Below, one piece after another: positions 1-63,878 of a stretch of DNA of 64,000 nucleotides. Source of the DNA: Zootoca vivipara (taxonomy: Eukaryota). The first letter of the stretch is position 1. Each line of letters starts with the position of its first letter. The notes beneath the pieces are model-generated. The model was not told where the DNA came from and ran no database searches. It was given only the letters and a program-made list of their open reading frames with translations. Location of the stretch: positions 75,888,001 to 75,952,000 of the forward strand of contig NC_083277.1 in NCBI RefSeq assembly GCF_963506605.1, written 5' to 3'. The translations under genes were made by a program, and so were the position numbers.

Positions 1-514
1 TGAGCACAGGGCGTGCATAGTGCAAATTATAGTCATTTATACATGAGAGCAATTTATCTTTGTGATCAGCTGTGCTTAGATAGGAACAAAGGAAATATGG
101 AAATAAGCCCAGACATAATTGAAAATCCAATGTCAAGATATAGGCAGAGGAGGGAGAGAACTTGTGGGCTGCTCAAGCATTGCTTTCTGATTATTGTTGT
201 AGCTGCTCCCTTGTCAAACAGACCAGCCGCCGCTTGAGCTTCCAGTAGCCTAACTTTTTAGCAGTGGAAATCACTAAATTGAAACCAGTCAGCAAAGCTC
301 CAGTCAGGGCCCCCTTTCCATTTCCACACTCAGGCCATTAGTGACTGATTCATTCTCCCTCAGGATGCTGCACAATCTAGTAGGGGGAAAATGGATTTGA
401 TCTCTAGAGGTTGTGTAACTTGGAAATAACAGTTTCCAGAGGGAACATGTGGCTTGATGGCAGGGTGCCAGGTGCGTTTTGCACCTAAAGATTCTCAATT
501 TGCAAGCATTTCAT

Positions 515-650
515 TTTTAAAAATATAATTTTTATTAAATTTTCTGTTTTACAATTTAGAACATTCAGCTTTTGAACCTTCTTCTCTTTCCATGGTTCAA
601 TTTGCATAACATAAATCCCTGCATATGGTACCAATATTTTTATTATAAAC
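515..650 (-). mobile_element. Degenerate LINE (L1-like) 3' UTR fragment
   Basis: T-rich tail with TTTATT (AATAAA on minus) followed by sequence resembling lizard L1 3' ends; a similar fragment lies near 57870-58050. Confidence 0.35.
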
Positions 651-809
651 ACCAAATTAAACATGTATCAACAGTTTCTGATAAAAATGTGATATTGACA
701 ATGTCTTTTATGTGAATTGTGTATTAGTTCATGGACTTGACTGTTGCCCATCTGCAGTAGGTGATGGGGCAGAATTTCTTGTTCATCTCCTGATAACACA
801 GATAAAACA

Positions 810-952
810 GGATAGCTCAGCTGGATAGAGCATGGTGCTGATAGCACCAAGGCTGTAGGCTCGATCCCCATATGGAACAGCTGCATATTCGTACATTGTA
901 GAGGGGCCGGACTAGATGATCCTCAGGATCCATTCCAGCTCTACAGTTCTAT
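810..952 (+). mobile_element. tRNA-derived SINE with CR1-like 3' tail
   Basis: A-box head GGATAGCTCAGCTGGATAGAGC, anticodon-like arm GTGCTGATAGCAC, B-box-like GGCTCGATCCC; tail GGACTAGATGATCCTCAGG...CTCTACAGTTCTAT resembles CR1 3' ends. Confidence 0.75.
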
Positions 953-3049
953 AATTGGCTTACTGAACAGCTGCAATAGGCCATTTTTGGCAACCAAAAA
1001 TGTCTATTGAATGGGCTTCTTGCATGTTGTGTTCAGTGATGAGTGCCAGGCATAAAACTCCAAGGAAATATGCTGAATGACAATGTGCCAGGAATATCTA
1101 GATTGCTGCAGCTGACTTCCCAGGTGTGTTTTGCTCTTCACTTTAATAGATCTGGGACTTATCCTATGAACTGTTGCATGTGCACTGTTGACCTGGAGCA
1201 AAAATGGCATGGTTGCCAACCACGCCTTTGGGCTAGCGCTGGGACTCAACCCTTTCTGGATGATACTGCAATATTCGTATGTGGTCTTGTATCATCAGAA
1301 GCACCATGATTGAGGAACCGTACAGATTGCATCCCTCTTAAGGCTCAGCTAGCTAGCCTGCCTGCCCACCACCACTGAGCTCCTGCTTTAGAGGAGAAAG
1401 TGGGCAAGAAGTTGGTCCATAATGGGATATGCAGGGTAGGTCCTCAACCAGGGTCACTGTTTCTAGGGAACTAGATTTCCATCCAGGGAAAATTCCTATA
1501 ACCTTGTTCAACAGAGCTGCACACAAGTTTCCAGTGTTACTGCTTGTGGAGAGGTTAGAAGCTAATCTCCCTAGCAAAGGACGGGCTGTATTGACAGGAA
1601 GTGCCGTCACAACCCGTGGCCTTGGTGCTGCACCTGAATATCCAGCAGTGGGTGGAAATGGGAGGGCTGGACTTGGCTTAAGATAGAGAGACTGTGTGTG
1701 TGCTCTTGTCCTGTTCTCACTCAGCTGAGCCTGGAATTATCAAACGGAGTACAACTGAGGGACTGGAGCACTCCTTCTTTCTGCATACTCCACCACCATA
1801 TGGTGAGACAGGGGGAAGTCTCTAGTTACTACACAGCTGTTGCAGCCAGCCAGGCTTCTGTGTGGAGAGCCTCTATTAACAGATCACATTACAATGAGCC
1901 AGCAGAGCCAGGGGGTAACCATAAGGCAGCTCACACCCTCTTTCCAAGTTGCTATGACAAAAGGACTATGTGGAACGTGTGGTCTCTGTGTGGGATGCCT
2001 TGTGTTGCTCAGTCATATACTGTATAGCAGAAAAGAGAGATAAGGAGGTTTCGGACTCCTGGTAGTAATCTGTGCAATGGAAAAGGCAAGGATCAAAATA
2101 CATTTCCAAAATTACTCCTTCTGGGATTTGGGGGAAATGGAGATTTTGGAGGCAGAGAATGAACTGAAGTCACTTCTGACTTCAGAAAGTTTGTGAGTGT
2201 GTTTTAATGGGGGCAAGTGGAAAGAGTAACCCTCAGGCAGATGCTCCCTAAAGCTATGGAATAAAGGATGTGTTTTGAACAGGGGTTCTTGAATTTTGGC
2301 TGGCCTGGGTATCCAGCCACTATTTGAGGTTGGAGACTGCCTTGTCCTGAGTCTTCTGTCACACGCAGAAGGGACTTAGGAAGCTACCTTATATTGAGCC
2401 AGACCATGAGCTAAAAGAGGCATTGATGCCTTTCACCGACAGAAATCTTAATACCCACCCCACAACTCTTGACATTGCCCAGATACCTTCAAACCCATTT
2501 TCACAGCATGAGAACTAGAAACCAACTTTTTTAAAAAGAAGAAAAGAAAGATGGGATACTATTACAGTACTACATCCCGTGAGTCTCCTATGCGGTTATG
2601 CTCAGATTCCGGGTATTTGTGTATACATTGCTTCCTACCCCAACAAAAGCATTTAGTTTCTGCTGAGCACTTCATTTCAGTTTTTCCACTATCTCACTAT
2701 CTTCTGTATGGTCTTCTTATCAGCCTGTGTTGCCACAAAAGAGTTCTGTTTTCTTTAACCTTTTGAAACCTAAGCAATCTCCCCACATTCCTTGGGCTTC
2801 ATTTACTTGGGGTGGGGATGGGGCTATAATCTAAATGTAAACATGATTCAACTCTGCATGCTTTTTGATCATAGACTCTTCCTACAGCGGTTTGAACCAT
2901 GCGGTTAAAGTGGTCAGTTTCCAAAGTTAGGCATGTACTTGACTCTTGTCCAGCTGAAATCATTTGAACTTTCAGTGGAATCCTATGCGTGCCCAATCAG
3001 AAGTGGGCCCGAATAAATTCAGCGGGAGTTTCTCCCAAATAAGTGAGTA

Positions 3050-3239
3050 CAGTGGTACCTTGGTCCTTGAAAACCAAGATGCAGCTTCCAATTGGCTGCA
3101 GGAGCTTCCTGCACTCAAGCGGAAGCTGCGTTGAGCTTCTGAAAAACGTTTGCAAACTGGAAAACTTAGTTCCAGGTTTGCGGTGTTTGGGAGTCGATTT
3201 GTTTGAGAAGTAAGCCATTTGAGATACAAGGTACCACTG
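3050..3239. mobile_element. Tc1/mariner (Tigger-like) MITE
   Basis: TA|CAGTGGTACCTTG ... CAAGGTACCACTG|TA terminal inverted repeats with TA TSD. Confidence 0.85.
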
Positions 3240-4479
3240 TATGTATATGTTTGCAGCCCATACTATAGCAGTACTGGAGAGTCAAAGGATAAGACTGCTA
3301 GAATGCAGCAAGTCTGTATAATTAGCCAAAGACCGCACAAGTCAAACCTCTAATCCAGGTTTCTGGTGGTACTGGATAACATTTAAGATACCAATTTGGC
3401 AACAGCATTTGGGGGGTGGGGTGGGGAGGGGAGGGAGCAGGCTGAACTAAAGTAATCCTGATGAGTTGGGTGGAGCTCTTGTTTTAGATGCTCTGAGGAA
3501 GCATCAGCCGGAGCAGGATTTCCTGGTATTGCATCCAGGTTCTTGCAGTTCCTGTAGCGGAAAGATGTTTCACTCATGTCTTGGGAGCTGTTGGGGGGCT
3601 TTCTAGCTCTTGCTAACTCTGGGAAGCCGTGGCTCTTTTGCTCTTGCTGTGCCCTTCTCTTTGAAGAGGGCAGCAATGCTTCAAAGCTGGAGGGCTACTG
3701 AAAGGGCCAGGCAATACATGGCACCAACTACATCATGTGCTCTTTGTGTGCAGGATTTTTTTCTGGCAGAAATACCTAGCATTTGGGATCCAGAGAGTAG
3801 GACTTTAGCTGTTGTTCCCTCCCCCCACCCTTGTTGAGGTCCCAATCTGGATTCCCTCCCCACCCAGTGTCTACAATTTCCATGGATTAAAACAACTCCT
3901 ATGGGAGATTCTCTCTTCTTGCCCCTTGCATTGCAAATTGCAGATGCAGGGGGCTCAGCTGGGACCACAAGAGGAAGCAAAGGGTTCAAGTCCCTGCCAC
4001 TTCCTTTCTTCCCATGTCGGGGTCCCACTCTTCACCAGGACATTTCATCGCCTTCTGGTGAGGGTGCTGCAAAAAGTCCCAGTCCCTCCTCTCTAGCTTG
4101 GTGCTCTGGAGGGAGCAGGGATCATCCCGTGCTGAGCTTCAGCGATGTGCAAAATGCCTTGCCCTTTTTCCAGCTGTGAGGTAGAGCAGAAGGTTAGGGC
4201 TGGCCATTTTGGTGCTGGGACACGGATGTGCTTGGAGCATCTTAGATGATTGACATTAAAACAAGTCCCTGATCCCCTTCCCCAGCTTCCGAATTATGGT
4301 ACTATGGAGAGGAGCAGAGGATTGTGGTGGAAGTCCTGCAGAGACAATTAGCTAGAAGGACCGTTGCAGAGAATGGCTCTTATTTCAGAATAAACATGCA
4401 TATCAGTTGCACAGAAGGAGAGAGGCCAGGTTCCCATGATCAAGACCTGCCAAAAATCTGTGGCTACTGGCCACAATAA

Positions 4480-4678
4480 CAGCTATGTTCTATCAACCTC
4501 CATTGTCAGAGGCATCATGCTGCCAAATACCAGTTGCTGGAAAACGCAGGAGAGGGTTCTTGTGCTCAGGTCCTGCTTTTCAGGCTTCCGGTGGGCATCT
4601 GGTTGGTCATTATGAGCACAGGATGCTGGGTTAGATGGGCCACTGGCCTGATCCTGCAGGTTCCTCTTATGTTCTATG
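4480..4678 (+). mobile_element. CR1-type LINE 3' end fragment
   Basis: GGCATCTGGTTGGTC...GGATGCTGGGTTAGATGGGCCACTGGCCTGATCC...CTTATGTTCTAT, typical CR1 3' terminal stem-loop and repeat. Confidence 0.6.
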
Positions 4679-7600
4679 GTCCCCTGTTCCTTGGTATCTC
4701 ACCTAGGATTCTGCATCATCTGCAGACCTGGATCATGGCTCCCAGGCCCAGAGTCCTTGGCTCTACCTCAGCTGGTGGAAAAAATAATAGAAGAACATAT
4801 AAAATGATGTACTCACCAGCCAAACAACCCCATTTTGGGAGGCATAAAATATTACCCATACTGAAGGCTGCCTCAGTTTCTCTTTTTCGCTTGGAGGGGG
4901 AATCATGATCCTTCCCAGAAAGGGTCTCAAAACTGTCTCCTCCTTCTGTCTTTTTTTTGGGGGTGGGATTGCATCTTCATTTGACCATTCCTGTTTAGCT
5001 TGTCTGTCGATATAAATGCCTCTCCTGTCTGATGGCCACAGTTTCCCGGAGGCTCTCCAAAGGCCCTTTCCCCCCTTGTCTGTGGGTTTTATTCATAAGC
5101 TATTTACACTGTCCCATTTCCCAAAACCAATCTCAGTTTGGGAAAGAGAGAGTGCCCAAGAGCAGGAAATGCCATTCCCTTGGGCTTGTGAGGGGAACTT
5201 CAGCTGGGGGAGCTGGAAAACAACACCACAGAGGGGGAGATTGCATTCTCCCCTTCCATCAGGGGTCTGCCCTTCCGCCTTGGCCCACTGAGCAGCTCTG
5301 AGCTTTGCTCTCCAACCTCCCCTGGGCACTCCTGTCTTTGTGTCTCAGTCTCCTGTATCTCTGGGCAGGGCAGGGTGCCAAAGCCCTGCAAAACCTGCTG
5401 CTTTTCTCTACTCCACAGTGATTGTTTTGAAGAGGCCCGCACCAGAGCTTGGCTTTGAAAAGCAAGTTTATTCTAGATTGTGAGTAATATTAACATTCTC
5501 TCCTTTGGTCTTAAAAGTTTGTTTTCATACATTACTCAGCAGGTCTGGCAGTTTCTTTAAAAGGACATGCCGGCCCTCTCTTCTGCAAGCCCCTTGATGC
5601 TCCCTTTGTTATGCAGAAAGTCATGGCATGCGCCAGAAAAGAGCCGTAATATACTCCTAGATTCCTATCTAAATCACCCAGGTTCTGGGTTCTGCTAACA
5701 TCGAGCATACGCTGCTGGTGTGGCTTGATAACATTTGATCTCAAAGCAGCTGTAGACCCTCCCTCCTTCCCCACCCCCACATATACCTTCAATACAGGGC
5801 CATCCCACCTCTGTGACCAAGTGGGCTGCAAGATTACTTTGACCCAGAACCCAGAGGCCACACACCGAATTAAATTTCCATATCACCTGTGTGTACATAT
5901 GTACATAGTGTGTGTATTACTAAAGCAGCCTGCATTCTGTCTGTATAGAATCTAGATAGCGATCCTTGCTGTCCCCTGGAAAACTCCCTCCTACCCCGCC
6001 CCCTCAGAGCACAGACTGTTGAAGGGTGTAATTTAGGAAGCCCCAGGTATCTATGCGCCATCTCTCATTTCCAAATTTATCTTCCTGGTGGTCACAGCTA
6101 ATAATTCATAAGCCCACCCAACATTCCATTCCTCTCTTCTGTGCCTTGGCTGGCTGTGTGTTGAAGGCAGGGCAGGATATGGCTCCTTCTGAGTTAACTG
6201 TGTAAAAATACTGGCTAACCCAGAACAAAGGGAGTCAGGAAAATACAATTGGTTACCCACCTCTCCCAAGTGCTACAGTGAGTTGAAATGGGCTGTGCGG
6301 CAGACTCTAGCAAAAGAAGGCTAGCAAAGTATTCGGCAATTCTTCTGTGGCAAAGGGTAGTGAACTCAACCCTAAATTCTGTGTTTTTAGGAATGCATAG
6401 CCATTACTTCATATTATCAATGATGATATTTGGAACACAGAAGCAATGCTAGTCCTTGCCTGGAGAGTTTACATGGACGTGAATTCGATGAAGCATATTG
6501 AGCCTTCCCTACTGAATGCTCAACCTGTAATAATCGTGGTGGGAGATGATGGTTTAGAGAGGACATTACAGGCTTTGAGGAAAGGATAGAAGGTGGAATA
6601 AGGGAATAGGGGTGGTGGTGGGCTGTTCAGGTGTAACATGACAGGCAAATGCAGTGAAAACAAAGGGAAACAGATGAGCTTCTGGACCCTTTTATGATGC
6701 TGAGACCTCAACCAGGAGATGATTGGCCTGATTAAATTGCTTAATCTCTCAACCTTTCACACAGCCCATTATTAGTAAAGATACACAACAGGCATCTTAC
6801 ATAGTGCGGCATGTTTTAATCCCCCCCCAATACCTAGTTCAAAAGCCCTGGGGCTGTTAGTATGCTAAACAGCTGGAAAGCTTTCAGTTCTATTTGCTCC
6901 TTCTTTCTGGTTAGCCGACCACAAAAATGTTTTCAGAGATTCTTTTAAGGAACCCAATAATATTTTCTTTCCCTGTTGCTTCCTCATTATTGCAGTTCAA
7001 GGCTTCTTTCAGCACTGAAGCAACAATTAAAACCATTAAAACAGTCAATGATAAGTGGTTGCCACTGATATCCAGCTGTGTGGCTCGGTGGTGTGAATCT
7101 AACTTATTTTGTATACATCTCACTGCTGGGGGTAGGGCTGTGTCCTCCTGGGTAAATGTTTTGTTTAAATAACCAGATGGATCCCTTGTGTCGGATTTTC
7201 TGAACACTCTTTTATGTGGCATCCATTGCACATTAGGATAATTATATGTAGAAGGTTACAGACTGATCCCCAGTTGCCCATTTCCAGGCAGGCCCATCTT
7301 AGCCATAGAGGCTAGTGGCGCGGGGCGCCAAGTTCTGGAGGGCACCAGGTGACAATCCAGGGAACACCAAACGAGCGCGCTGAGTGAGCGAGGGTGCATG
7401 TGTCGCTCCCGCCGAGCGCCGGCTCGGTTTTTTCCTTTTAGCCTGCAGGCACCGAATTCTGTGGGGCGCCAGAAGGCTAAAAGGGGAAAAACCAAGCCGA
7501 TGCTCAGTGGGAGAGGCACACGCACCCTCACCCGCAGCACGAAGCGCCCAGTTGAGTCGGGAGGCGCAGCGCCCAGCCTCCGCCTCTTCCCCACCTCCAG

Positions 7601-7748
7601 TCGCTGCCCACCTCCTCCAGCCCTAAAAAAAGGTCGGCAACTCTGGGAAAAGGGGGGCGCCGGAGGGATCTTTGCACCACAGTGCCAGATATGCTTAATA
7701 AAAAAATTCCTTCAGTAGCACCTTAAAGGCCAACTAAGTTTATATTTT

Positions 7749-7787
7749 GGTATGAGCTTTCGTGTGCATGCACACTTCTTCAGATAC
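7749..7787 (-). ncRNA. Minimal hammerhead ribozyme motif, inverted copy
   Basis: Reverse complement of the same motif; stem I shortened to 4 bp at the inversion junction. Confidence 0.65.
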
Positions 7788-7803
7788 GAAGAAGTATTCT
7801 TCA

Positions 7804-7843
7804 GGTATCTGAAGAAGTGTGCATGCACACGAAAGCTCATACC
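7804..7843 (+). ncRNA. Minimal type I hammerhead ribozyme motif, copy 1
   Basis: Stem I GGTAT/ATACC, core CTGAAGA(A), stem II GTGTGC/GCACAC, GAAA, palindromic stem III AGCT, predicted cleavage after TC at 7838. Confidence 0.75.
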
Positions 7844-7987
7844 AAAATATAAACTTAGTTGGTCTTTAAGGTGCTACTGAAGGAATTTTTTTATTTTGCT
7901 TCGACTCAGACCAACACAGCTACCTACCTGTAACTAGAACTATGGAAGGCACCACATTGAGCCGCATGAAATGGAAGTCCATCAACA

Positions 7988-8027
7988 GGTATCTGAAGAA
8001 GTGTGCATGCACACGAAAGCTCATACC
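7988..8027 (+). ncRNA. Minimal type I hammerhead ribozyme motif, copy 2
   Basis: Identical 40-nt motif to 7804-7843. Confidence 0.75.
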
Positions 8028-8519
8028 AAAATATAAACTTAGTTGGTCTTTAAGGTGCTACTGAAGGAATTTTTTTATTTTGCTTAGACTCAGACCAACA
8101 CGGCTACCTACCTGTAACTAGATATGCTTAAGACGGCCCTGTTTCCAGGTGTGTTGATTGTTGCTGAATTCATACAGTGTTGTTGTTTTTTAAACTGCTT
8201 TTCAAAGCACATTAGAACTTGTCTAATTAAAAACATGATTTACTAAGAATATACAGTTGCCATTTGTTTACTTTCAGCTCCGGTCCTTGCCTTTGTTTGC
8301 ATCTTCGCATTATCAAAGCTTAGATTATAAGCTTTTCTCTCATTCATTCATTCATTCATTCTTGTGTCACTCAGTAAAGCACCACTGATGACATCAATAT
8401 GTAGTGCAGGGGTGGTGAACCTGTGACCCTTCAGATATTGTTGAGACATCATATTATGAATATGGTAAACATATTTATATCATGACTTACAGTATGGATC
8501 AATCTTTCTGCATAATGAT

Positions 8520-9265
8520 GATCTTCTTCTTCTTCGATCACTCATAGCCAAGTAAGATTGGCTTCCATGAACACAGTGGAGATATAGGTTTCCGGGTGGG
8601 AGTTGATCACAGTGAGGGTTTGCCAAATGTGTCTTCCTCTGAGCTCTTCAAAGTCCATGACACCTTTGGTAAAGGGTGTTCTCCTATTGGAGCACTCTCA
8701 GGCCAGTGTTTCCCAATTGTCAGTGTTTATATTACATTATTTTTAGGTTTGCCTTGAGATTTGCCTTTAAACCGCTTTTGTTGACCACCAGCATTATGCT
8801 TTCCATTTTTAAGTTCGGAATAGAGTAGTTGCTTTGGAAGATGATAATCAAGCATCCCAACAACATGGTCGGCCAGTCCAACGAAACTGATGCTGAAGAA
8901 TCCTTGCTTTGATTGACACTGGTGATCTTTGCTTCTTCCAGTACACTGACATTAGTTCGCTTGTCTTCCCAAGTGATATGTAATAATTTTCGGGGACATT
9001 GTTGATGAAATCTTTCGAGGAGTTGGAAATGGCGTTTATAAGTGGTCCATGTTTCACATGCATACAGTAAGATTGGTAATACAATGGCTTTGTAAACAAG
9101 CATTTTGGTTTCCCTGCAAATGTCCTGGTCCTCAAACATTCTGCATTTTTATCAGGAGAAAGCTGCATTTGCAGAGCTCAGGTGATGCTGGATTTTGGCA
9201 TCAATGTCAGCCCTTATGGAAAGATAACTGCCCAGATAGGAAAAGTGAACATTTCCCAATGTTAT
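8520..9265 (-). mobile_element. RTE-clade LINE 3' fragment (degenerate)
   Basis: Minus-strand peptides TKMLVYKAIVLPILLYACETWT...ERFHQ...ITWEDKRTNVSVLEEA and QFRWTG, with frameshifts; (GAA)n-type tail near 8522. Confidence 0.85.
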
Positions 9266-11049
9266 ACCAAGAACTTCCAAGAAGTCCTCAATGGCAGAAC
9301 AGGCGGAAGATAATAAGCGGTATGTTACAATGGCTGTGAAGGTGGATGAAGGCTGCAGCAGATAAGAAACTACCAGTCGTTGTGATAATCATGCCATCAG
9401 AATAGAGCCTTACTGCTAGGACTGTGCGTTGGTCAGCGTGCACTGATATCCACACATAAAACAAATTCACACACGGGCATCTTCCAAAAACCCATCCCAA
9501 ACCCACATAATGATATGGGGCATAGTTGATAATGGATAATCTTCAGTGGCGACTTTAGCAGCTCTTTTCTAACTTGGAAGGGGTAAAATCAATAAAAAAG
9601 GGAAAAATAATAAGCTACATCTGTTTTGATGTTTCAAAACATGTTTTTCACCCTTCAACAGAACTAACTTTTATTATCCCAGAATGCTGTAAGCATTGCA
9701 ACACAGTCTTCAAAAGAAGCTATTATCTTGATGTTGCAGTTTATACACAGGAACTGAAGCAGGGTTTACAAATTTTTGCTATAAATCTATGCTGTCTACT
9801 TGGGCTCTGCTACATGCTTTCATACTCACCAATTATCCCTAGCTTCACAGATGGCCCTTGTTTTAAGATGCCACAGTGTTCCTGTTCCATCTTTTGCTGA
9901 GATTTTTCTTGGTGGGGGGGGGGAGTATCTTGCTAGAGTGTATTCCCTATTCATGCATTTAGTATCTGTAGATACTGAATGCCCAGCCTAGACTCATTCA
10001 TTCGAGTGAAGCCAACACAAATGCGCAATAGTCTTCTTTCAGATGGATGCCAATGTGAGAGCAGGTGTATATGTGTAAGGCTCCCTCCATGGGAATGGGA
10101 ACTCCCCGCCATCAAGGAGAGTCCCAGCTGTGCACATAAGGTTCCCTTCCGACTGATGCAGATCACCTGCTACCAGGGGTGCGTGATCAGTATCTGGGGA
10201 TGGGGCTAGCCTGCACATTCTGGAGACCCCCTTTGCCCCTTCAGGACCCATGGGTACTGAATGCATGCCTGTGCACTCGGGTTCAGTGCCATGCTGTTGG
10301 GGCCTTTAGAATTATCTCTGAGTAGGGGAGATGCATCTCTGCTGCAGCACACATGTGTGTGAATGTACACAACAATGCACATGGACACAAAAATGCCGGC
10401 AACCTACTTCTCTTCCTTCCATCCACCCACCCACCCCCTGAACTTCCTATCCCTGCAGTAAATGTTGCAAAATACGTTTGAGTGGTGGCTATTATCTAAT
10501 AAATCCAGCCAGGTCCACTGTGCTATTAAACAGTTTTAATGTGTGTGTCAAAGAGATAAGGTTATGGTCAGTTTACTACTAACACACCCTTCTCCGGAAT
10601 CTGCTGCTGGACCGACTTCCTTATGAAATCAGCGAATGTTATCTTGTGAAGTAAGTAAATGTTATGTGCAGTGAGCAGAAATGACTAGTGGCTGGGCCGG
10701 TAATGGAGGTGCTGGGGAGTTAGGAGAACAATCCTTGGTGTGAGAATAGGGGTGTTACAAGCCTTCAGGTCCCCCCTTCCATTTGTCATCTGTGAATGCT
10801 TTGGGAATGGGGTGCAAAGAAGAGCAACTTACGGACCAAGATGAGTGTGTATGTGTAGGATATATATTTCCATGCATATTCCACCGTTCTCCATATGGCA
10901 CATGCCTTACAACAGTAGTAAAAAGTGCAATGCATATAATAATAATAAAAACCACAAACATGTGACCGCAGTTTTTGCCTTCCCCACCTTGCATCCATGT
11001 ACATGGTCTGCTTTTAAGACTTGTTCTCCTTCCCTATCTTTAAAGAAGC

Positions 11050-11186
11050 CAGGGATGGTGAACCCGTGGGTCTCCAAATGTTGTTGGGCTCTGACTCCCA
11101 TCAGCATGTCCAGCATGGCCAATCTTCAGGGATGATGAGATTTGGAGTCCACCAGCCTCTAGAGGGCCACAGGTTCCCCACCCCTG
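11050..11186. mobile_element. Short palindromic hAT-like MITE
   Basis: CAGGGATGGTGAACC ... GGTTCCCCACCCCTG ends with internal CTCCCATCA/GATG..TGGAG palindrome; same family as 42640 and 53263 copies. Confidence 0.65.
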
Positions 11187-11298
11187 GGGAATAAACATCA
11201 CCCTAGCCACAGGCAGCTGTTTATCCATGAGCAGCTTCTAAAGAGCTGGTCAACCAACCATGAGCACTTATCGCTCAGTTTCTGGCCATGGGCATGTG

Positions 11299-11492
11299 TG
11301 GAGCTGTAGCTCAGTGGCAAAGCATCTGCTTTTCAGGCAGAAGGCCCTTGGTTGAATCCCCAGCATCCCCAGGTAGGGCTGGGTAGGTTCCCTGCTTGAA
11401 ACTCTGGAGAGCTACTGACAGTCCATGTCGACAGTACTGAGCTAGTTGGACTAATGATCTGAACTCACTGAAGGGCAGATTCTTATATTTCC
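11299..11492 (+). mobile_element. tRNA-derived SINE (Squam3-like)
   Basis: GCTGTAGCTCAGTGG..AGCATCTGCTTT..CAGAAGG..GGTTGAATCCC head; body CTGGAGAGCTACTG..CAGTACTGAGCTAG; related copies elsewhere in the window. Confidence 0.75.
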
Positions 11493-12555
11493 ATGACATC
11501 CTATGGTAGCATTTAAAGGACCCATATTCTGTTTGGTAGAGCTGTACGCCCACCCTCCCGCGTTTAGGGCTGATCACACTTCTATTAGGTTTTAAATCTA
11601 CCGGCTTTGTTTTTGTGTTGAGCAGTTGGGCCCAACATGCTGCTAAGCATTTGGTTCCTTGATTGAGCTTTCCTGTGCAATGTTGTTGGCAATTAAATGC
11701 TACTTTTATCTAGCAATCGCAGTTCATGCATGCCCCGCAGCCAGACCTCAGTTCCTTTCCAAGCTTATTTATCTAAGCCTTGCAAAATCCGAACTGGTAG
11801 ACCAAATCGGAGCTCCTTGCACCTTCGCCAGTAAGAAATGTGTAGAATGGAATTTACCAACGGAACAGAATAACAAAGACTTAAAACGGGCTCATGTTTT
11901 ACCGCAGAACACTTGGAAATGTGATATCCAAGAATGCAAATAGAAGCACATCTAGTCTGGTTTTCTTGGCTTTGTTTTTATCATCCTCATGGATATGGGG
12001 ACGTCACAAAAATGAACTTCATTTTTTTTTCTTCTTCTAAATTTTGGCAGGGACGCCATTTAAATTTCCCTGGGAGACAAGTTTGTGTACATAGGACATC
12101 AGTGTCCTATATTCCAGTGGGTGTGCAGCAGAACATTGAATAATATCCAGCAAAGCTTACTTCCAGTGTTCACTGCTCTGATCAATACAATACCTTTAAA
12201 GCATCGGACACAAACCCAAAAGAATCCTGTGAACTTCAGTTTATCCCCTCACAGTTATAATCCCAAGCACCTTTAACAAACCACAGTTTCCATGATTCTT
12301 GGGTGGGGCATCATGTGCTTTAAACGTATGGTATGTGTGCTGTTTAACTCTTCCTTTCCAAAGCAGCTATTTATGCACTTTAAAAACAATCATAATCAGT
12401 CACACTTGCTGAAAGCTAGGGTTCTACAGACTGATCAGAGCAGCAAACACTAGAGGCAACCTTTACTGGATATTATCCAAAGTTCTGCAACACTCTGTAT
12501 ACTTTAAATATATGGTGTGCATGCAGCCTTACCGTCTGACCTCTTAGCCAGTGAG

Positions 12556-25472: not shown

Positions 25473-28400
25473 TCAAACATTAAAAGCTTCCCTAAACAGG
25501 GCTGCCTTGAGATGCCTTCTAAAGGTCTGGTAATTGTTGTTCTCTTTGACCTCTAGTGGGAGGGCATTCCACAGGGTGGGTGCCACTACCGAGAAGGCCC
25601 TCTGCCTGGTTCCCTGTAACTTGGCTTCTCGTAGTGAGGGAACCGCCAGAAGGCCCTCGGAGCTGGACCTCAGTGTCCGGGCAGAACGATGGGGGTGGAG
25701 ACGCTCCTTCAGGTATACCGGACCGAGGCCGTTTAGGGCTTTAAAGGTCAACACCAACACTTTGAATTGTGCTCGGAAACGTACTGGGAGCCAATGTAGG
25801 TCTTTCAGGACCGGTGTTATGTGGTCTCGGCGGCCGCTCCCAGTCACCAGTCTAGCTGCCGCATTCTGGATTAGTTGTAGTTTCCGGGTCACCTTCAAAG
25901 GTAGCCCCACGTAGAGCGCATTGCAGTAGTCCAAGCGAGAGATAACTAGAGCATGCACCACTCTGGAGAGACAGTCAGTGGGCAGGTAGGGACTCAGCCT
26001 GCGTACCAGATGGAGCTGATAAACAGCTGTCTTGGACACAGAGTTGACCTGTGCCTCCATGGACAGCTGTGAGTCTAAGATGACTCCCAGGCTGCGCACC
26101 TGGTCTTTCAGGGGCACAGTTACCCCATTCAGGACCAGGGAGTCCTCCACACCCGCCCGCCTCCTGTCCCCCACAAACAGTACTTCTGTCTTGTCAGGAT
26201 TCAATCTCAATCTGTTAGCCGCCATCCATCCTCCAACCGCCTCCAAGCACTCACACAGGACCTTCACTGCCTTCACTGGTTCTGATTTAAAAGAGAGGTA
26301 GAGCTGGGTATCATCAGCATACTGATGGACACCCAGCCCAAACCCCCTGATGATCTCTCCCAGCGGCTGCATATAGATGTTAAAAAGCATGGGGGAGAGG
26401 ACAGAACCCTGAGGCACCCCACAAGTGAGAGCCCAGGGGTCTGAACACTCATCCCCCACCACCACTTTCTGAACACGGCCCAGGAGGAAGGAGCGGAACC
26501 ACTGCATGACAGTGCCCCCAGCTCCCAAACCCTCTAGACGATCCAGAAGGATGTTATGGTCGATGGTGTCAAAAGCCGCTGAGAGATCCAGCAGAACAAG
26601 GAAACAGCTCTTACCTTTGTCCCTAGCCCGCCGGAGATCATCGACCAGTGCGACCAAGGCAGTTTCAGTCCCATGATGAGGCCTGAATCCTGACTGGAAG
26701 GGATCCAAATGGTCCGCTTCTTCCAGGCGTGCCTGAAGTTGTTCAGCAACCACTCGCTCAACCACCTTGCCCAAGAATGGAAGATTTGAGACTGGGCGAT
26801 AGTTGGCCATATTGGCCGGATCTAAAGATGGTTTTTTAAGAAGCGGTTTAATAACCGCCTCTTTCAGCGGGTCTGGGAAGGCTCCTTCATGGAGAGAGCA
26901 TTTACCAACCCGCGAAGCCCATCGCCCAGCCCTTCCTGGCTAGCTTTTATAAGCCAGGATGGGCAAGGATCAAGGAGACAGGCGGTTGGTTTCACTCGTC
27001 GAAGCAGCCTGTCCACATCCTCGGAGGTAACAGATTGAAATTGATCCCACAAAACTTGACTAGACAGGACTCTAGCACTCCCCTGCCCCGGCCCTGCCCC
27101 CACGGTGGAGTCTACCTCTTTCCGAATCTGAGCGACTTTATCTGCAAAAAACTTTGCAAAATCATTGCAGGAGATCATGTGGCCCGTACTGGGCCCGGAT
27201 GGAGCAGGTGGTTCCGCTAAATTGCGAACCACCTGGAAGAGTCTCCTGCTGCTGTTTTCTGCAGATGCGATGGAGACGGTGAAGAAGGTCCTCTTCGCCG
27301 TCGCCATTGCCACTTGGTAGGCTCGAAGTTGAGCTCTAGCCCGTGTCCGGTCTGATTCAAAATGAGTTTTCCGCCACCGGCGCTCTAGCCGTCTCAACGA
27401 CTGTTTCATCGCCCTCAGCGCCGGGGAAAACCACGGGGCTGTCCGGGCTCCATGCAATCTGAGAGGGCGCTTCGGAGCCAGACAGTCAATAGCGCTGGTT
27501 AACTCCGCATTCCAGCGGGCCACCAGGGAATCAGCTGAAAGGCCATCGACATGGGATAAAACATCCCCTACCACTCTCTGGAAGCCAATTGGATCCATTA
27601 AGTAGCGGGGGCGGACCATCCGAATCGGTCCCACCTCCCTGCAGAGGGGAAGGGTTGCGGAGAAGTCCAGTTGCACCAGAAAGTGATCTGACCATGGCAC
27701 TTCTTTTGTTTCGCTTTTACTTAATGTCAGATCACCAACATCCATAGAGGTGAACACCAAGTCCAAGGCATGTCCGCGGCTATGAGTTGGGCCAGACTTA
27801 TTCAGGGACAGCCCCATGGTGGCCATGCTTTCCACGAAGTCCCGAGCGGCTCCTTGTAAGGTCGTGTCGGCATGGATGTTAAAATCCCCTAAGACAACCA
27901 AGCTAGGTGTCTCCAGGAGCACATCCGACACGACCTGAAGCAGCTCGGGCAGGGAATCCTTGGTGCAGCGGGGAGGTCGGTACACCAAAAGGAATCCTGT
28001 ACTGCCCCTATTGCCCAACTTCCAGAACATGCACTCAGAAAACTCCGTCTTACCAATAGGACGCCTGGTGCAAACTAATGACTTCCTAAAAATCACTGCA
28101 ACCCCCCCTCCCCGCCCAGATGGCCTGGGTTGCTGTGCATAAGAGAAACCTGGTGGACAAGCAGCGCCAAGAACGGGCCCATCGGCTTCATCCAACCAGG
28201 TCTCTGTCACACATGCCAGGTCAAATCTTCCATCCACAATCAGGTCGTGAATGGCAGTGGTCTTATTCATCATCGACCTGGCATTGCACAGCAGCACCTT
28301 CAGGTCATGTGGGTATCCCTTGCTGATTCCAATATCCGTCCGGTCAGGACCAGACCCGGAGGCAGGGATAGTCCTCAGACAACGACTAAGTCTGCCTCCT

Positions 28401-28504
28401 CGGTAATGACATGGTCTGGTCTTAGCGTAACTCCTCCTCCTACCCGTGACCACTGAGATCGGTTGTCCCAGTGCATCACCCCCTGTGGAATCTGCCCCAG
28501 CCAT
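25473..28504 (-). pseudogene. LINE ORF2 (endonuclease + reverse transcriptase), 1010 aa if a single 1-nt deletion near 26897 is restored
   Basis: ORFs 28615-26864 and 26810-25473 join as VNA[S]LHEGAFPDPLKEAVIKPLLKKPSLDPANMANYRPVSNL by adding one base; no other stops. Confidence 0.9.
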
Positions 28505-28984
28505 TTTGCTTGCTGGGACCCCCTCCCGAGCAGCCCTGACCCCTCCCCTTAAAAACAAAATAAAACCTCTGTAAAAACAGCAAAGAACAGAACAAAAGAA
28601 AAACACAAAAAACACAATAAAACAATAAAACCAAAAACAATAAAAATTACAAATACACTAAAATTTAACAGATTCCCACACCCGACTAAAAATCCCTCGC
28701 TAAAACCTATGTAAATCAAAAAATACAGTAAAACAATACAAAGACAGAAAATTACAAACTAAAATTGACCCCTCCCCTTAAAATCAAATTTAAAACCAAT
28801 ACAGAAAACAAACTAATGCAATAAAACAATACAAACAAAGACAGAAAATTACAAACTAAAATTAACCCCTCCCCTTAAAATCGAATTTAAAACCAATACA
28901 GAAAACAAACTAACAGACTAAACGATAAACAAAAACCAAAAACAATAAAAGTTACAAACACATCAGAATTACAAGAAAAGCAGC

Positions 28985-30370
28985 AGCGGCACTGTTTCAG
29001 GCCTCCTAGGAGCCTTAAAGCTGTGGTAGAGTATGGGTCCCGCCCCCGGGCCCAAGGTGGAAGTGGGCCTCAGGGGGAGCAGTCCTTCCAGTACTCACAG
29101 CAGCACTGATGTTCCAGGCCTCCCAGGAGCCTTAAAAGCTGTGGTGGAGTGGGGGACCCGCCCCAAGCCCCAGGTGGAAGTGGGCTTCAGGGGGAGCAGT
29201 CCTCCCAAACACTCCCTGGCAGAGCAGCAGCAGCAGCAATGTTCCAGGCCTCCCAGGAGCCTTAAAAGCTGTGGTGGAGTGGGGGACCCGCCCCAAGCCC
29301 CAGGTGGAAGTGGGCTTCAGGGGGAGCAGTCCTCCCAAACACTCCCTGGCAGAGCAGCAGCAGCAGCAATGTTCCCGGCCTCCCAGGAGCCTTAAAAGCT
29401 GTGGTGGAGTGGGGGACCCGCCCCAAGCCCAAGGTGGAAGTGGGCTTCAGGGGGAGCAGTCCTTCCAGTACTCACAGCAGCACTGATGTTCCAGGCCTCC
29501 CAGGAGCCTTAAAAGCTGTGGTGGAGTGGGGGACCCGCCCCAAGCCCCAGGTGGAAGTGGGATTCAGGGGGAGCAGTCCTCCCAAACACTCCCTGGCAGA
29601 GCAGCAGCAGCAGCAATGTTCCAGGCCTCCCAGGAGCCTTAAAAGCTGTGGTGGAGTGGGGGACCCGCCCCAAGCCCCAGGTGGAAGTGGGCTTCAGGGG
29701 GAGCAGTCCTCCCAAACACTCCCTGGCAGAGCAGCAGCAGCAGCAATGTTCCAGGCCTCCCAGGAGCCTTAAAAGCTGTGGTGGAGTGGGGGACCCGCCC
29801 CAAGCCCCAGGTGGAAGTGGGCTTCAGGGGGAGCAGTCCTCCCAAACACTCCCTGGCAGAGCAGCAGCAGCAGCAATGTTCCCGGCCTCCCAGGAGCCTT
29901 AAAAGCTGTGGTGGAGTGGGGGACCCGCCCCAAGCCCAAGGTGGAAGTGGGCTTCAGGGGGAGCAGTCCTTCCAGTACTCACAGCAGCACTGATGTTCCA
30001 GGCCTCCCAGGAGCCTTAAAAGCTGTGGTGGAGTGGGGGACCCGCCCCAAGCCCCAGGTGGAAGTGGGATTCAGGGGGAGCAGTCCTCCCAAACACTCCC
30101 TGGCAGAGCAGCAGCAGCAGCAATGTTCCAGGCCTCCCAGGAGCCTTAAAAGCTGTGGTGGAGTGGGGGACCCGCCCCAAGCCCCAGGTGGAAGTGGGCT
30201 TCAGGGGGAGCAGTCCTCCCAAACACTCCCTGGCAGAGCAGCAGCAGCAGCAATGTTCCAGGCCTCCCAGGAGCCTTAAAAGCTGTGGTGGAGTGGGGGA
30301 CCCGCCCCAAGCCCCAGGTGGAAGTGGGCTTCAGGGGGAGCAGTCCTCCCAAACACTCCCTGGCAGAGCA
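28985..30370. repeat. Tandem array of 130-bp (A) and 117-bp (B) GC-rich units with 507-bp higher-order period
   Basis: Unit starts near 28997(B, diverged), 29113(A), 29243(A), 29373(B), 29490(A), 29620(A), 29750(A), 29880(B), 29997(A), 30127(A), 30257(A, partial). Confidence 0.95.
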
Positions 30371-30589
30371 TATACTGTATATATACAGTATATTCCATCT
30401 GACTTCCTCTGAATATAGGGCCAGAGTTGTGGCCCTATGTTGAGGGTGAGTCAGTTAAATCACAGCCCACCATTATAAACAAGAAATCGGCCTCAGGTTT
30501 CTGAACTTCCATGGGTGCTGGCTTCAATGAGAACTTCTTTGGTGTTCCCGCACACTTTGGCACTCGTCACAGTGTCCCATTGCGTCAGA

Positions 30590-30733
30590 AGTTTAGTCAT
30601 GCTGGCCACATGACCCAGAAAGCTGTCTGTGGACAAATGCCGGCTCCCTCAGCCTGAAGCAAGATGAGCGCCGCAACCCCATAGTTGCCTTTGACTGGAC
30701 TTTACCGTCCAGGGGTCCTTTACCTTTACCTTT
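30590..30733 (+). mobile_element. Sauria SINE 3' fragment
   Basis: TTAGTCATGCTGGCCACATGACCC...GATGAGCGCCGCAACCCC...CCTTTACCTTTACC. Confidence 0.8.
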
Positions 30734-31624
30734 CTTTAGCCCAGAAATGGAAGACACTACTGGACTTAAATTTCTCATTGCAATACAAGAATATGTGGAC
30801 TCTACCTATTGCAGAGAAAATAATTCATCTTGTGGGATTTAATTCCTTATATGTCAAATTCGGATATACCACTCTTTCCCCCATCAAATTGTGAAATTTG
30901 GCTTTCATGATGTGCTTTTCTTTTTCTACATTATCTGCTCGCTATTTATTTGAAAAATACAACACCTGTACTGCTCCTGTGTTTTGTAACTTTGATTATT
31001 TATTGTTTGTTCGTTCGTATTTTTTATTTTATGTTAATGAAGAATAACAAAAAATGTTATCTTGGGCAGAAAAAGGGTTTGGTGGGTGGAGGAGGGAGTG
31101 CAGTACGTTTTGTGGATTACTGTATAGTTAGAAAAAGGTTTAACAAATTGATTTGAAACTTGGCAGTGTAGGAGAGATATGTTTGAGGATGGTTCATATC
31201 GAATATGGGTTAGATAGAATAAGAAATGGCTTATTTTGAATGAGTTAAATGCTTGCTTGACAAGTGACTCTTGGAAATTAACAAGTAGTGTTCCATTTTT
31301 TCTTCCATTGGCTTTACCGGGTTGATATTTGAAGGAAAATTGCTGTGCTTGTACTGCCTTTTGGGGGAAAATTTGTTGTGTTAGGTCAAGTGGAACACCT
31401 AGTAAGTGACATGACCTATGAACTGTTTAAAATGTTTCATTTTTATGAACGGTATTTTTGTAGGCAGTGTTAGGGAATGTGCCCAACACATGCTCATTGT
31501 GAACCTGTTCTGAAAAGTCTGAGCAAAAGCGACACATAGAGTGTTGTGAAGTGACATTTTGTGGCACTGTAAGGGGCCAGAAAATAAATTGGGAAGAGGG
31601 GGGAGAAGTTTACAGAGGCATAAA

Positions 31625-31800
31625 AGTTTATTTTACTCCATTTATATCCCTGTTTTCTTCTAAGGATCTCAAGGGTAGCATACATGATTTTCTCCCTCCT
31701 TATTTTATCCTCACAACAACCATGTGAGGCAGATTAGACTGAGAGGCGGTGACTGGCTCTTGATCACCCAGTGAGCTTCACAGCTGTGTGACTATTTGAG
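31625..31800 (-). mobile_element. MIR/CORE-like SINE fragment
   Basis: TTTTATCCTCACAACAACCATGTGAGG...GACTGAGAG...GTGACTGGC...TCACCCAGTGAGCTTCA. Confidence 0.6.
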
Positions 31801-32050
31801 AGGGTTGCCGCATGACCCAGTTGGGTGTGTTTAAGTATCTAGCATTTACAGAAGCAAATCACTCTGCTCACAACCGCCATCCAGCTGCAGTGTAGTGGTG
31901 AACACATTCATATTGCCTAAATAAAATGTCTGTTAAGGGTGACACTGCAATTTATTAGCATTTTGGAACTTCAGTAAACATGGAAAGCCCTTAAAAACAT
32001 TATTTTTTGTGTTAATTGATATAATGTGTATGAAGTTCTTTGAACATTCT

Positions 32051-32407
32051 AAAGGCAGGTAAAGGTAAAGGGACCCCTGACAGTTAGGTCCAGTCGCGGA
32101 CGACTCTGGGGTTGCGGCGCTCATCTTGCTTTACTGGCCGAGGGAGCCGGCGTACAGCTTCCGGGTCATGTGACCAGCATGACAAAGTCGCTTCTGGTGA
32201 ACCAGAGCGGCACACAGAAACACCATTTACCTTCCTGCCGGAGTGGTGCCTATTTATCTACTTGCATTTTGACGTGCTTTCGAACTGCTGGGTGGGCAGG
32301 AGCTGGGACCGAACAACGGGAGCTCACCCCACTGCGGGGATTCGAACCGCCAACCTTCTGATCTGCAAGCCCTAGGCTCTGTGGTTTAACCCACAGCACC
32401 ACCTGCC
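32051..32407 (-). mobile_element. Sauria SINE (reverse)
   Basis: Reverse complement of the 18135-18457 element: AGGTAAAGGTAAAGGGACCCC ... GATTCGAACCGCC ... GGTTTAACCCACAGCACC. Confidence 0.88.
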
Positions 32408-33904
32408 AAAGGTGCTAATAATATTGCTGCAGTTAAAGCACATAATTTCTAACCCAGATCAAGGTTGAATAGTTTATGTTGGTGGTTACTTGCAACAACA
32501 TGGTTGGGAGATGAAAAGGATTAATAAATGATGTCAGCCTTTACTGTGGGTTTATAGTATATGTGTTGAATAGACCTTTGTTCTTATAGACCCTTCAGAA
32601 GGAACTATGCATGTGTATGTGCAGGTCACTCTGATGTACAGCTTGTGCTGATCTCATGCACTGATGGTACTGCTTGACAATGAGAGCTTATAGCCATGCA
32701 CATTACGTGTACTTTTTCTGTTAACCCTGCACCCTGGCCAGCCAGATTCTGGTGTTCTCCACTCATACCCCTTTCCTTCTCCCCACCTGCTACTCATTCC
32801 AATATTCCTGAAACCCAGGGTTGGTGACACTAGGTGAAACCCCACACTGGAGCTGCCCAGATCCCTTTGCCTTGTATCCACCTAAGCTGAAAATCTCATA
32901 TTTAGATTGGCCCCACCGAGGGAGGAGGAAACAGAAGGCTTGTGAAGATAAAAGCGCATCAGCGGAGGTGGCAGGAAAAGGCTTATGATGGTTGCATCCT
33001 GAACATGCTGTGAACTGGGATTAGGAACCTGTTCCCAGCAACGGGAGACCTAGAATTTGTGGATACAAATTGTGAGCTGGGGGGCAAGACGAAAGCTGAG
33101 GGGTACCTGGATATATACTCAGTTTTCCTATGAGTATAAAGTACTGAGCTGTGGTGCTTCGTCCTTTAAATAACCTTCTAGCTTAGGCCCTCTTCATGCA
33201 CATGTGCGCATACACATGCACACACAGAGAAAGAGCTACTTCCACACGGTAGAGTCCCATGCTCAAAGGGAGCACATGAGAATGTGGACAGGGCCACTCA
33301 TGTGGGAAAGGTCATTCAGATGTGCATATGAAGCCAGTGGGGGTTTAGATATAGCCTAGCATAGAGGTAGGGGGGTGGGAATACTGAGTAATAATAAAGG
33401 ATTCCTTTTAGCATGTAGGGTGAACGTTCCATCAGCACAGGGATTTCTCTTTGCACAATGGAACAGTCTCCTTCTGTCCTCCCCTCCCCCATGTGCCTCC
33501 TAAATCTGTTCGAGGGGTTCTCCTATTCCTCTGGAGCACCTTTGGGGAGGGTGCAGGGTGAGGAAGGGGGAACAGTCCCATTGTGGAAGCAGAAATTGTT
33601 GCACTGACAGAACTCATTAGTAGAATACCACCCCTAGCATTTAGCAGTTTGCAACCCCCAAATTCCATCAAGGCTTTCTGTTTTAGACCTTGCTCAGGAA
33701 TGAGATGGGAAAGGCTCTTGACTATTTGGGATTACACAAAAATATGTGCTAAAAATAACGAAGAGGGAGGCAGACCAAAAGAGAGGGAGGTACGTGCATT
33801 GTCCTTGAACAAAATGAGTCCACCTGTTTCATAGGGGTTGCTGTTCCCCCAAATGTTTTCCAGGGTCTGTTTTTACCTCCCAAGACAGTCCACACTCTGG
33901 GAAA

Positions 33905-34072
33905 TGTTGTTGTTGTTTAGTCGTTTAGTCGTGTCCGACTCTTCGTGACCCCATGGACCATAGCACACTAGGCACTCCTGTCTTTCACTGCCTCCCGCAG
34001 TTTGGTCAAACTCATGTTCGTAGCTTCGAGAACACTGTCCAACCATCTCGTCCTCTGTCGTCCCCTTCTCCT
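33905..34072 (-). mobile_element. BovB (RTE) LINE 3' end
   Basis: Minus peptide RRRGRQRTRWLDSVLEATNMSLTKLREAVKDR; GGGGTCACGAAGAGTCGGACACGACTAAACGACTAAACAACAAC tail. Confidence 0.85.
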
Positions 34073-35555
34073 ATCGTGAGCTCCATTATGAAAAGGCCTG
34101 TGTTGTGCCCTCCTTGAGGATAATGGAAAGCTATGCAGCGCAACATGAGTGAATAGTTTTGCAGGGTGTGGGTTCACTTGCAGCTGACAAGACATATATT
34201 CACAAGAGGACTGAAGTTCTTTTGTTCTCCTGATGTTTGTATGGAAATGTGCACTGTGTGTCTGAACAACCCACCTTACTCGCCATCCTCATCAGTCAGC
34301 ACTTTGGAATTCACCTTGCGGCCAGTGCTGCTGATAGCTTGCTCCCTGTGGCAAGAATTTGCCTTATAAAAACCTGGAGCTTTGCGGTGAAGCTACCTGA
34401 GTCAGATTGTGACTCACAGCAAAGCTTATGTGGCTCATGCTTGTTACTGATGCAGAATCTCTGCATGCTAACTATAGCGCTGAAATGAAGCACCTCTTCC
34501 TCGGCAGATGGCTGCCAGGGTATGGAGTCAACCTCTGTTCAGCTTCTAGCTGCAAACTGACTGGCCACATACCCATTGCAAAAAAAGAGGAAATAAACAA
34601 AATCCACCATCCAAAAATTAGGACAAAGGAGGACTCTGATTTGCACAAAAATTGCATTTGCTAACTTATTTCTATAGATGCAAGTGTAGAAATAAATTAC
34701 TATAACTTAAATAGAAATACAATACATTTCTCCATTGAGGGGAAGGCAGTGACTCATTTGGCTGCTCAATCAGCTGGCCAGCTGCTAACTGTTGATGGCC
34801 AACTTCATGGCCCCCCCGATCTCCCTTCTTATAGTTCTTTGTCTTCAAACTGAACTTCAGCAAAGGAATTCAATTAGAGGACTGTCATTTGTGCTACTTA
34901 CCAAATTCTCACTTGGACGGTCTTGCACATAGGAGCAGTGGTGCATTGCTTAGACCTAAATGACTGGATATCTGGGTAAGGCCAAGGCTTTACATGACAA
35001 GCAAAGTTTCCTCATGAAACTGGCTTCTGTATTGCAAAGTGCCCTCAAGTATAAAGAGGGGACTTGTGTATCCAGACAGTTTTTGGGATGTGCCAGGGAG
35101 TTCTGTGGCAACTGCTTATCCCTGACTTGTGGCCACAATGTATCCCAGAGTGTTTGGAGATGCTCTCCATCCCATAATACATACTAACCCTGTCCCCCTC
35201 CCCCATGGTAGAACAATGGCTTCTGTTGTTCCCTGGGACACTCAGTAGGCCCTTGGTTGCAATTAGGACCGCATCACATCCTCTCTTTATGGCAAATGCA
35301 TCTTATAAATTATGAATCTTGGCTTACAGGAAGCCTTGGGGCTGTGCACTTCCAGTATCCTCATAATGACACCGAAGAAAGAGATAAAGATAGATTATCA
35401 GGATATATCCAACTCCAAAGGGCGTGCTCTGAGCTTAGTGGGCCTTGAGGCTGGAAGATTTTAGAGAAACCTGAGTGAGTGATCTTGCCTAATGGCTTGG
35501 TGCCGTTCTCTCTCGTTCTTCTTTTTAACTAAATCCAAGCACCAGGAATGGCTAT

Positions 35556-35972
35556 TGTGAGGGACAAGGGATACAGGGAAGTCCCTCCCATCTTAAGTTC
35601 CAGCCCATCCCCAAGCGCTGGAGAGAGTAAGGAGAGCTCTGCCTCCAGCGGAGAGTCAGGAAGTGGTGTCCGAGGCTCAGGCAAGGTTGTGGAGCCCATG
35701 CCTCAGGTGGGGCAGGAAGTTGGGCGCACGGGGGGAAGGCCAATCCCCCCAACTCCCGAATTGCGATGCAAACGTAGGGGGAAGAGGTTGGGTCTCCCAA
35801 AGCTTTTGTGCTGGAAGAAAACGCGCCAATCGCCATTCGGAGGTTCTGACACCTCACCTTAAGCATGTATATAGATCGTTCTGACCACTGTAAATAATCA
35901 GCACTTAATAAAAGCCTAAAAAGACTATGCTGGAGTCGTTACTCTAGAGTAGCCACATCAGGCCCTCTGACA
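35556..35972 (+). repeat. 5' LTR
   Basis: TGTGAGGGAC...CTCTGACA; AATAAA at 35907-35912; differs from the 3' LTR at 2 positions by eye. Confidence 0.95.
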
Positions 35973-36013
35973 GCAACCTCCGAATCTTTTTTTGGCTACT
36001 TTGGAGTGCCGCG

Positions 36014-36787: not shown

Positions 36788-36821
36788 GGAGGGGGGGAGA
36801 GGAGCCTGGGAGGGGGGTGGA

Positions 36822-41630: not shown

Positions 41631-63878
<22,248 letters not shown>

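Follow-up and report, generated by a model that had tools for sequence, protein, structure and literature searches.

The close tandem of hammerhead motifs at a Zootoca vivipara locus probably arose by reverse-transcriptase jumping within a single Penelope-like element insertion

Two hammerhead ribozyme motifs lying 184 nt apart on one strand raise the question of whether they act together, as a dimer that cuts out a small RNA, or instead record the way in which a retroelement was copied into the genome. We examined such a pair in a 64,000-nt stretch of Zootoca vivipara DNA, hereafter the window. Our main conclusion, to which we give a probability of about three in four, is that a single Penelope-like element (PLE) inserted here recently, leaving three copies of its hammerhead-bearing 5' end, that the tandem was likely made by a jump of the reverse transcriptase (RT), and that the ribozymes are predicted to be blocked by the inverted copy lying upstream.

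The 40-nt hammerhead motif is the same at positions 7804-7843 and 7988-8027 of the plus strand, with a spacing of 184 nt, and an inverted copy of 39 nt occupies 7749-7787 on the minus strand. The initial annotation had placed three hammerheads at these positions and they are indeed there: a generic scan for minimal type I hammerheads on both strands of the window returned exactly three motifs, and none in each of 40 dinucleotide shuffles. The hammerhead search proposed along with that annotation gave a mixed outcome, as the generic scan recovered the three motifs and the Rfam models yielded no hammerhead match at E<=10. The 21 Rfam hits were miRNA-type hairpins or weak matches, under their gathering scores, and the miRNA-family matches reflect the shape of the hairpin described below. 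All three copies keep the core (CUGANGA, GAAA and UH) and have an extra base after A9, a G10.1-C11.1 pair, a palindromic 15.2-16.2 and no loop 3, so that their description as minimal type I hammerheads with a palindromic stem III is borne out; the predicted cuts, after C7838 and C8022, had also been placed correctly. We number the element from q1 (window 7802), which puts the predicted ribozyme cut after q37 and the start of the element's open reading frame (ORF) at q141. A fifth pair of stem I is built on G7804 and G7988; natural element copies have T there, which leaves them with a stem I of 4 bp. Helix I thus falls within the 4-5 bp of the class, with 4 bp native and the fifth pair gained via the junction G.

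The layout of the locus is given in Table 1. The sense motifs belong to a direct repeat of 137 nt (99% identity, period 184), a period that Tandem Repeats Finder (TRF), run on the window, did not call, and the inverted motif belongs to a 91-nt arm (7697-7787) that is 99% complementary to 7805-7895. A single 12-bp duplication encloses, in order, the inverted piece q94-4, filler, q4-185, two bases and q4-137, and the target and the element match over 2-3 nt at both ends of the insertion. The 47-nt spacer between the repeats is the start of the ORF, not host DNA, and natural copies run on from it into a long ORF. The 184-nt period is therefore the element's own 5' end (ribozyme, leader and 15 codons) rejoined to its start, and the junction G at 7988 is likely a copied RNA cap. 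Relative to the natural copy L006, there is one difference in 91 positions in the inverted fragment 7697-7787, one in 182 in 7805-7986 and one in 134 in 7989-8122. These differences are private, one per piece, and since they amount to 3 in 407 the insertion is young. The PLE occupies the right-hand end of a host element (7289-8141) whose hAT-like label we infer from its 8-bp duplication and terminal inverted repeats; this host element also has an internal inverted repeat at 7428-7490.

Table 1. Features of the insertion and its surroundings, in window coordinates
Feature	Position	Strand	Remark
Intron 1 of PH-domain gene (putative)	1..41715	+	candidate exon 1 joins exon at 41,716 in phase
Left 8-bp target duplication of hAT-like host element	7281..7288		identical to 8142-8149
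hAT-like non-autonomous host element	7289..8141		ends complementary 15/19; other copies' contigs stop matching at 8141
Left 12-bp target duplication of PLE	7687..7698		identical to 8120-8131
Inverted PLE fragment q94 to q4, with inverted hammerhead 7749-7787	7697..7787	-	predicted left arm of 91-bp hairpin
17-nt filler, head-to-head joint	7788..7804		short sense and antisense bits of ribozyme 5' segment
Hammerhead 1, minimal type I	7804..7843	+	predicted cut after 7838
PLE fragment q4-185: ribozyme, leader, ORF start	7805..7986	+	ATG at 7942, 15 codons
Two junction bases, absent from both parent sequences	7987..7988	+	joint sequence comparison
Hammerhead 2, minimal type I	7988..8027	+	predicted cut after 8022
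PLE fragment q4-137, ending in 30-40-nt tail	7989..8122	+	tail at distal reverse-transcription start site
Right 12-bp target duplication of PLE	8120..8131		first 3 nt overlap element q135-137
Right 8-bp target duplication of hAT-like host element	8142..8149		identical to 7281-7288

Other repeats are found in the window. Beside the locus, at 8500-9500 on the minus strand, lies a fragment region whose translation we take to be that of an RTE-type LINE. Farther on are LINE-type RT and endonuclease frames (25473-28657, minus strand, with two long open frames of 488 and 597 aa), a tandem array in which periods of 130, 247 and 377 nt are nested, with about 92% matches (28979-30370), and a duplicated segment with an LTR-retrotransposon-like frame (35552-37204), presumably with a chromodomain-like end.

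The Penelope origin proposed for the motifs is supported by the domains of the parent ORF and by the layout of the insertion. At locus L162 a single ORF of 925 aa matches RVT_1 (E 2.4e-10) and, at its C terminus, GIY-YIG (E 5.9e-5), and the translation of the parent ORF contains a CX2-5CxxC linker of the Neptune/Nematis type by the criteria in the available text of PMC8557442. The arrangement of endonuclease-bearing (EN+) PLEs is likewise present: a pLTR with a hammerhead, a tail, tandem and inverted pieces, and a target duplication. L162 and another locus, L176, are near-full tandem PLE units with a period of 3,030 nt. The family is large, with at least 17,681 exact genome copies of a 27-nt core pattern against none of a control.

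Where copies of this family end is informative about how they were made. Among 48 copies in the first 2.1 Mb of contig C1, the 3' end falls at q88-101 in 27, at q128-143 in 20 and elsewhere in one; two start sites plus a tail are also described for the anole Poseidon element PAc (in the portion of PMC11167929 available). On the 5' side, native sequence continues in 33 of the same 48, and a break falls at about q-6 to q11 in 13 of them and at q12-19 in two. Genome-wide, when two non-native bases were required upstream of a break, 4,823 copies begin at q4, while 117 break at the cut site, compared with 47 and 18 at the neighbouring controls q35 and q41. In a hand count of the first 100 listed of the 4,823, q4 was preceded by 69 G, 20 A and 11 C, an excess of G over the 31.5% expected (P 7e-15); an extra G, as a copied cap, is a mark of full-length L1 insertions in the available text of PMC11702581. 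Some of the extra Gs are traceable to inverted filler, as at 7804. Two subfamilies that otherwise differ in upstream sequence have TATA-like boxes starting 30 and 31 nt ahead of q4. From this we infer that templates start uncut, at the front edge of the ribozyme. Some copying from cleaved RNA may also occur, because the 117 cut-site breaks exceed the controls and only 12 of 30 that were inspected are explained otherwise (microhomology in 4, fold-back in 5 rows from 3 loci, internal indels in 3, against a remainder of 18).

RNA reads count, weakly, against this reading. In runs X21-X23 neither starts nor ends pile up at q4, at the L162 cut site or at q185, a weak test given fragmented libraries and read-through from thousands of copies. 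The only nearby starts are in X21, where 7 of 23 and 5 of 22 molecules begin 24-26 nt upstream of q4. Since reads pile up at neither q4 nor q185, the start site and the short RNA invoked below are derived from DNA alone. Over L162:400-3400 the RNA depth is 230-2,300 in the bins of the pLTR and mostly below 10 across the ORF's initial 1.1 kb; it reaches several hundred over the ORF end and 3' UTR of L162 in run X23.

The joint of the tandem is not peculiar to the window. We took all 58 exact matches to the ORF start on contigs C1 and C2, of 292 in the genome, counting array members singly: 28 end within q174-198, another 10 within q199-500, and the remaining 20 extend past q500. The ribozyme 5' end follows within 8 nt in 20 of the 28 that stop at q174-198, and three others of these directly adjoin non-element DNA. 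The 46 loci with a joint at q182-190, the ORF ends covered by the joint pattern, contain 26 different joint sequences. The commonest recurs in 10 of the 46 and that of the window in three; clonal spread of the latter was considered and rejected, as its three loci differ in subfamily state. More generally, loci sharing a joint are no more alike in sequence than others (permutation p 0.75). Left pieces begin anywhere from q3 to q167, an extra G is present in 29 of 46 joints, where the ORF supplies no G, and the set includes no array and no joint at the cut site. Tandem joints thus look made anew each time, whereas a hammerhead-made circle would give seamless units with a fixed joint, and multimers. 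The pattern of breaks and joints points to run-off and jumping by the RT, not to a circle made by the hammerhead.

In the reading that we favour, the endonuclease would cut both strands of the target 12 nt apart, priming would occur from the right end at q137 and from the left at q94, and reverse transcription would proceed to the capped 5' end of the RNA at about q4, with a G added. One enzyme would then restart at a third preferred site near q185 and run again to q4, and the two cDNAs would be joined head to head via filler. The restart point could be where a short RNA ends on its 3' side, or else an internal position fixed by the bound protein. We propose priming at both ends because of the head-to-head layout, the 2-3-nt matches between target and element, and the activity of PAc on both strands; in the available text of PMC3846280, head-to-head joints are ascribed to self-priming on antisense RNA. 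As for the restart, the shortest active PAc RNA extends 146 nt beyond the cut site in the portion of PMC11167929 available, and the joints seen here lie 137-161 nt past it, a range that includes this value; as the clade differs, the match is only suggestive and may be a coincidence.

Of the other ways to build the tandem, the one that fares best is that it was copied from a small circle, not made by the hammerhead, in which a position near q185 was joined to the 5' end and around which the RT went 1.7 times. Such a circle would account for copies of more than one unit, as proposed in the available text of PMC4209133, and the joints are tightly clustered; in many loci the left and right pieces also have subfamily bases in common (41 shared positions). 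A ligated circle does not easily accommodate a cap-like G at the joint, however, and neither 26 different joints with no array in 46 loci nor the direct contact of 3 of 28 q174-198 ends with non-element DNA speaks for one, so that we hold this origin to be improbable. It is quite improbable that the tandem reflects two successive PLE insertions, one within or alongside the other, or a later local duplication: PLEs are said to insert into or beside existing copies (available text of PMC6765202), yet one 12-bp duplication encloses all three pieces and the inner piece has none of its own, all pieces are equally near L006, each with private changes, and the same layout repeats in dozens of loci.

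Known systems share many of these traits. The minimal hammerheads that metazoan PLEs carry (Cervera and de la Pena 2014, PMC4209133) have, in the available text, the same core with an extra base between 9 and 10.1 and a G10.1-C11.1 pair, and likewise a palindromic 15.2-16.2, no loop 3 and a helix I of 4-5 bp; they too occur in thousands of copies, with opposite-strand pairs within 100-700 bp. Helix II is 5 bp here, from a 14-nt palindrome, as against 7-8 bp in Schistosoma, and unlike in the systems described there, two sense copies lie just 184 nt apart. EN+ PLE insertions, so far as PMC8557442 and PMC3846280 describe them in their available parts, show the same direct pair plus inverted copy, a tail at one end and a target duplication, and have in common with our element a TATA in the pLTR and the CX2-5CxxC linker; the inter-repeat piece of 15 codons, the recurrent q174-198 joint and the cap-like G set the present insertions apart from them. 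PAc (Frangieh 2024, PMC11167929) has the same two internal RT start sites 30-40 nt apart, both strands are likewise cut and extended, and its RNAs, in the portion available, likewise do not end at the ribozyme cut site; it belongs to another clade, and its ORF begins inside the ribozyme.

Resemblance to non-LTR retrozymes (PMC7229834; bioRxiv 10.64898/2026.07.22.740005; available parts) lies in short tandem type I hammerhead units related to PLE ends. Unlike these, the unit of the locus, known from DNA, has no shared monomer or arrays, its second unit is incomplete and its ribozyme is minimal, not canonical. Outside PLEs, concatemer synthesis by DRT2 (PMC12039810) likewise yields repeats when the enzyme jumps on a linear RNA template, and inverted pieces also result from priming at both cut ends in the twin priming of L1 (PMC11702581). 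Both enzymes are unrelated to that of PLEs, and, unlike in these systems as their available text presents them, the jump at these loci lacks precision and is seen a single time in each.

Whether the ribozymes could cut depends on the transcript in which they would lie. Exons of a PH-domain gene, which we take to be AFAP1L1, are found on the plus strand from 41.7 kb of the window. Some 10.8 kb before the window a candidate exon 1 comprises an ATG, 16 coding nt, a GTAAGC donor and a CpG island, the island lying about 11 kb before the window; the end of another gene, presumably ABLIM-type, is about 18.6 kb before it. As the exon-1 donor and the acceptor at 41,715 agree in phase, the insertion would lie in intron 1 in the sense orientation, and the earlier suggestion to this effect would hold, given the candidate exon 1 and its phase.

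In such a transcript the inverted arm precedes hammerhead 1 and is made first. The hairpin that it would form, 7697-7895, has a predicted energy of -160.7 kcal/mol, and forcing the dimer fold in the whole insert costs about 65 kcal/mol by folding prediction, these energies omitting Mg2+, tertiary contacts, proteins and RNA editing and overstating the cost of the core. For transcripts ending at 7900 or 8030 the predicted probability that core 1 pairs with the arm is 1.0; for one ending at 8145 it is 0.78 for core 1 and 0.22 for core 2, so that at all three lengths the arm would hold one core. In host pre-mRNA, then, the arm would zip up hammerhead 1 and leave hammerhead 2 partnerless. The construct proposed in the initial annotation, 7800-8040, excludes this arm; in the tandem without it, the palindromic stems II are predicted to cross-pair over 14 bp, 23 kcal/mol better than the dimer.

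The published activity of such motifs is modest. In the available text of the papers concerned, dimeric and trimeric minimal hammerheads cleave at a low level (PMC4209133), the PAc hammerhead shows no cleavage without the PLE protein (PMC11167929), and cleavage was seen in one of nine frog elements (bioRxiv 2026.07.22.740005); the statement that these motifs cleave efficiently as tandem dimers was thus overstated. As for RNA from the locus itself, no ends at 7838 or 8022 were seen in two runs of which about 6% each was read, a weak test with an unsuited library type, and the depth on the unique flanks of the locus was zero in the same share of two runs, again a weak test. The reads found at the locus come from other copies, and 92-95% of them run on into sequence unlike the locus (X21-X23).

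Both cores are nonetheless intact, all 24 of 24 pairs of the dimer fold of the two sense hammerheads are Watson-Crick, and the junction G adds the fifth stem I pair. Within the core, N7 varies most (6 of 30 and 9 of 46 copies), a pattern that selection on the ribozyme would produce, and the parent ribozyme is thus likely under selection. Even with these points, the sense orientation in the putative intron, and axolotl dimers that cleave and circularise (available text of PMC7229834), we regard as very improbable the initial view, that of a nascent retrozyme in which the intronic hammerheads would pair up as a dimer and cleave after 7838 and 8022, the 184-nt RNA thus freed becoming a circle, given the predicted arm pairing, the predicted cross-pairing of stems II, the published activity of such motifs, which is low or depends on protein (PMC4209133, PMC11167929), and, as a weak point, the silence of the reads. 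Release of such an RNA or circle finds no support in a unit that lacks the family behaviour of one propagated by circles. Because the inverted copy would be transcribed first and bury hammerhead 1 in a 91-bp hairpin, dimer cleavage at this locus is unlikely. With hammerhead 1 blocked by the arm and hammerhead 2 left without a partner, the locus is likely neutral debris, giving at most a long intronic hairpin.

The window locus works like a partial tandem made by a jump, and it departs from retrozymes in two respects. Retrozymes consist of complete units in tandem, a criterion with TRF taken from the 2026 preprint (available part), and here the second unit has 137 of 184 nt and goes uncalled by TRF. 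They also spread as one monomer, and here we find 26 joints in 46 loci, no array and the p of 0.75 given above. Better cases for a test of dimer cleavage exist elsewhere in the genome: 14 of the 46 joint loci have two intact motifs, and eight of these, without an upstream inverted copy, are such cases (L087, L097, L102, L103, L107, L108, L109 and L150).

The best retrozyme-like or rolling-circle candidate seen in the genome is L141 (G000:C3:91,909,000-91,911,900), where ten ribozymes are spaced by nine identical 293-nt units, with partial ends, enclosed by one 10-bp target duplication. Its unit comprises promoter region, hammerhead, leader and ORF start. Two further loci of the same subfamily bear promoter-containing units, L142 (G000:C1:2,777,300-2,779,750) with a 598-nt unit four times and L120 with a 263-nt unit twice, each with a target-duplication-like flank. 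No source locus was found for the L141 and L142 arrays, whose joints are confined to the arrays themselves (10 of 10 and 4 of 4), and since the joints occur only there, local expansion fits these arrays as well as a rolling circle does. We suggest, tentatively and with the odds against it, that a third start of the PLE RT near q185, with a jump from the capped 5' end, gives close hammerhead dimers in one step and so a route by which retrozymes may be born. The eight unblocked loci and the promoter-bearing arrays (293 nt in ten identical copies on C3, 598 nt in four on C1) would then represent extant intermediates, and the arrays would have been copied by rolling circle from circles that the hammerhead made.

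Taken alone, the locus is unremarkable: it is one copy among at least 17,681 and holds little promise of self-cleavage in vivo; the family-wide pattern of copy ends is more useful. We found no paper describing the q174-198 joint hot spot in the open-access literature searched. How PLE tandems form was a question left open in PMC2377424, and cutting by PLE hammerheads in vivo is left open in the available text of PMC4209133 and PMC11167929. On both, what the copy ends of this family say is that templates begin uncut at the front edge of the ribozyme, and that mini-tandems come from a restart near q185.
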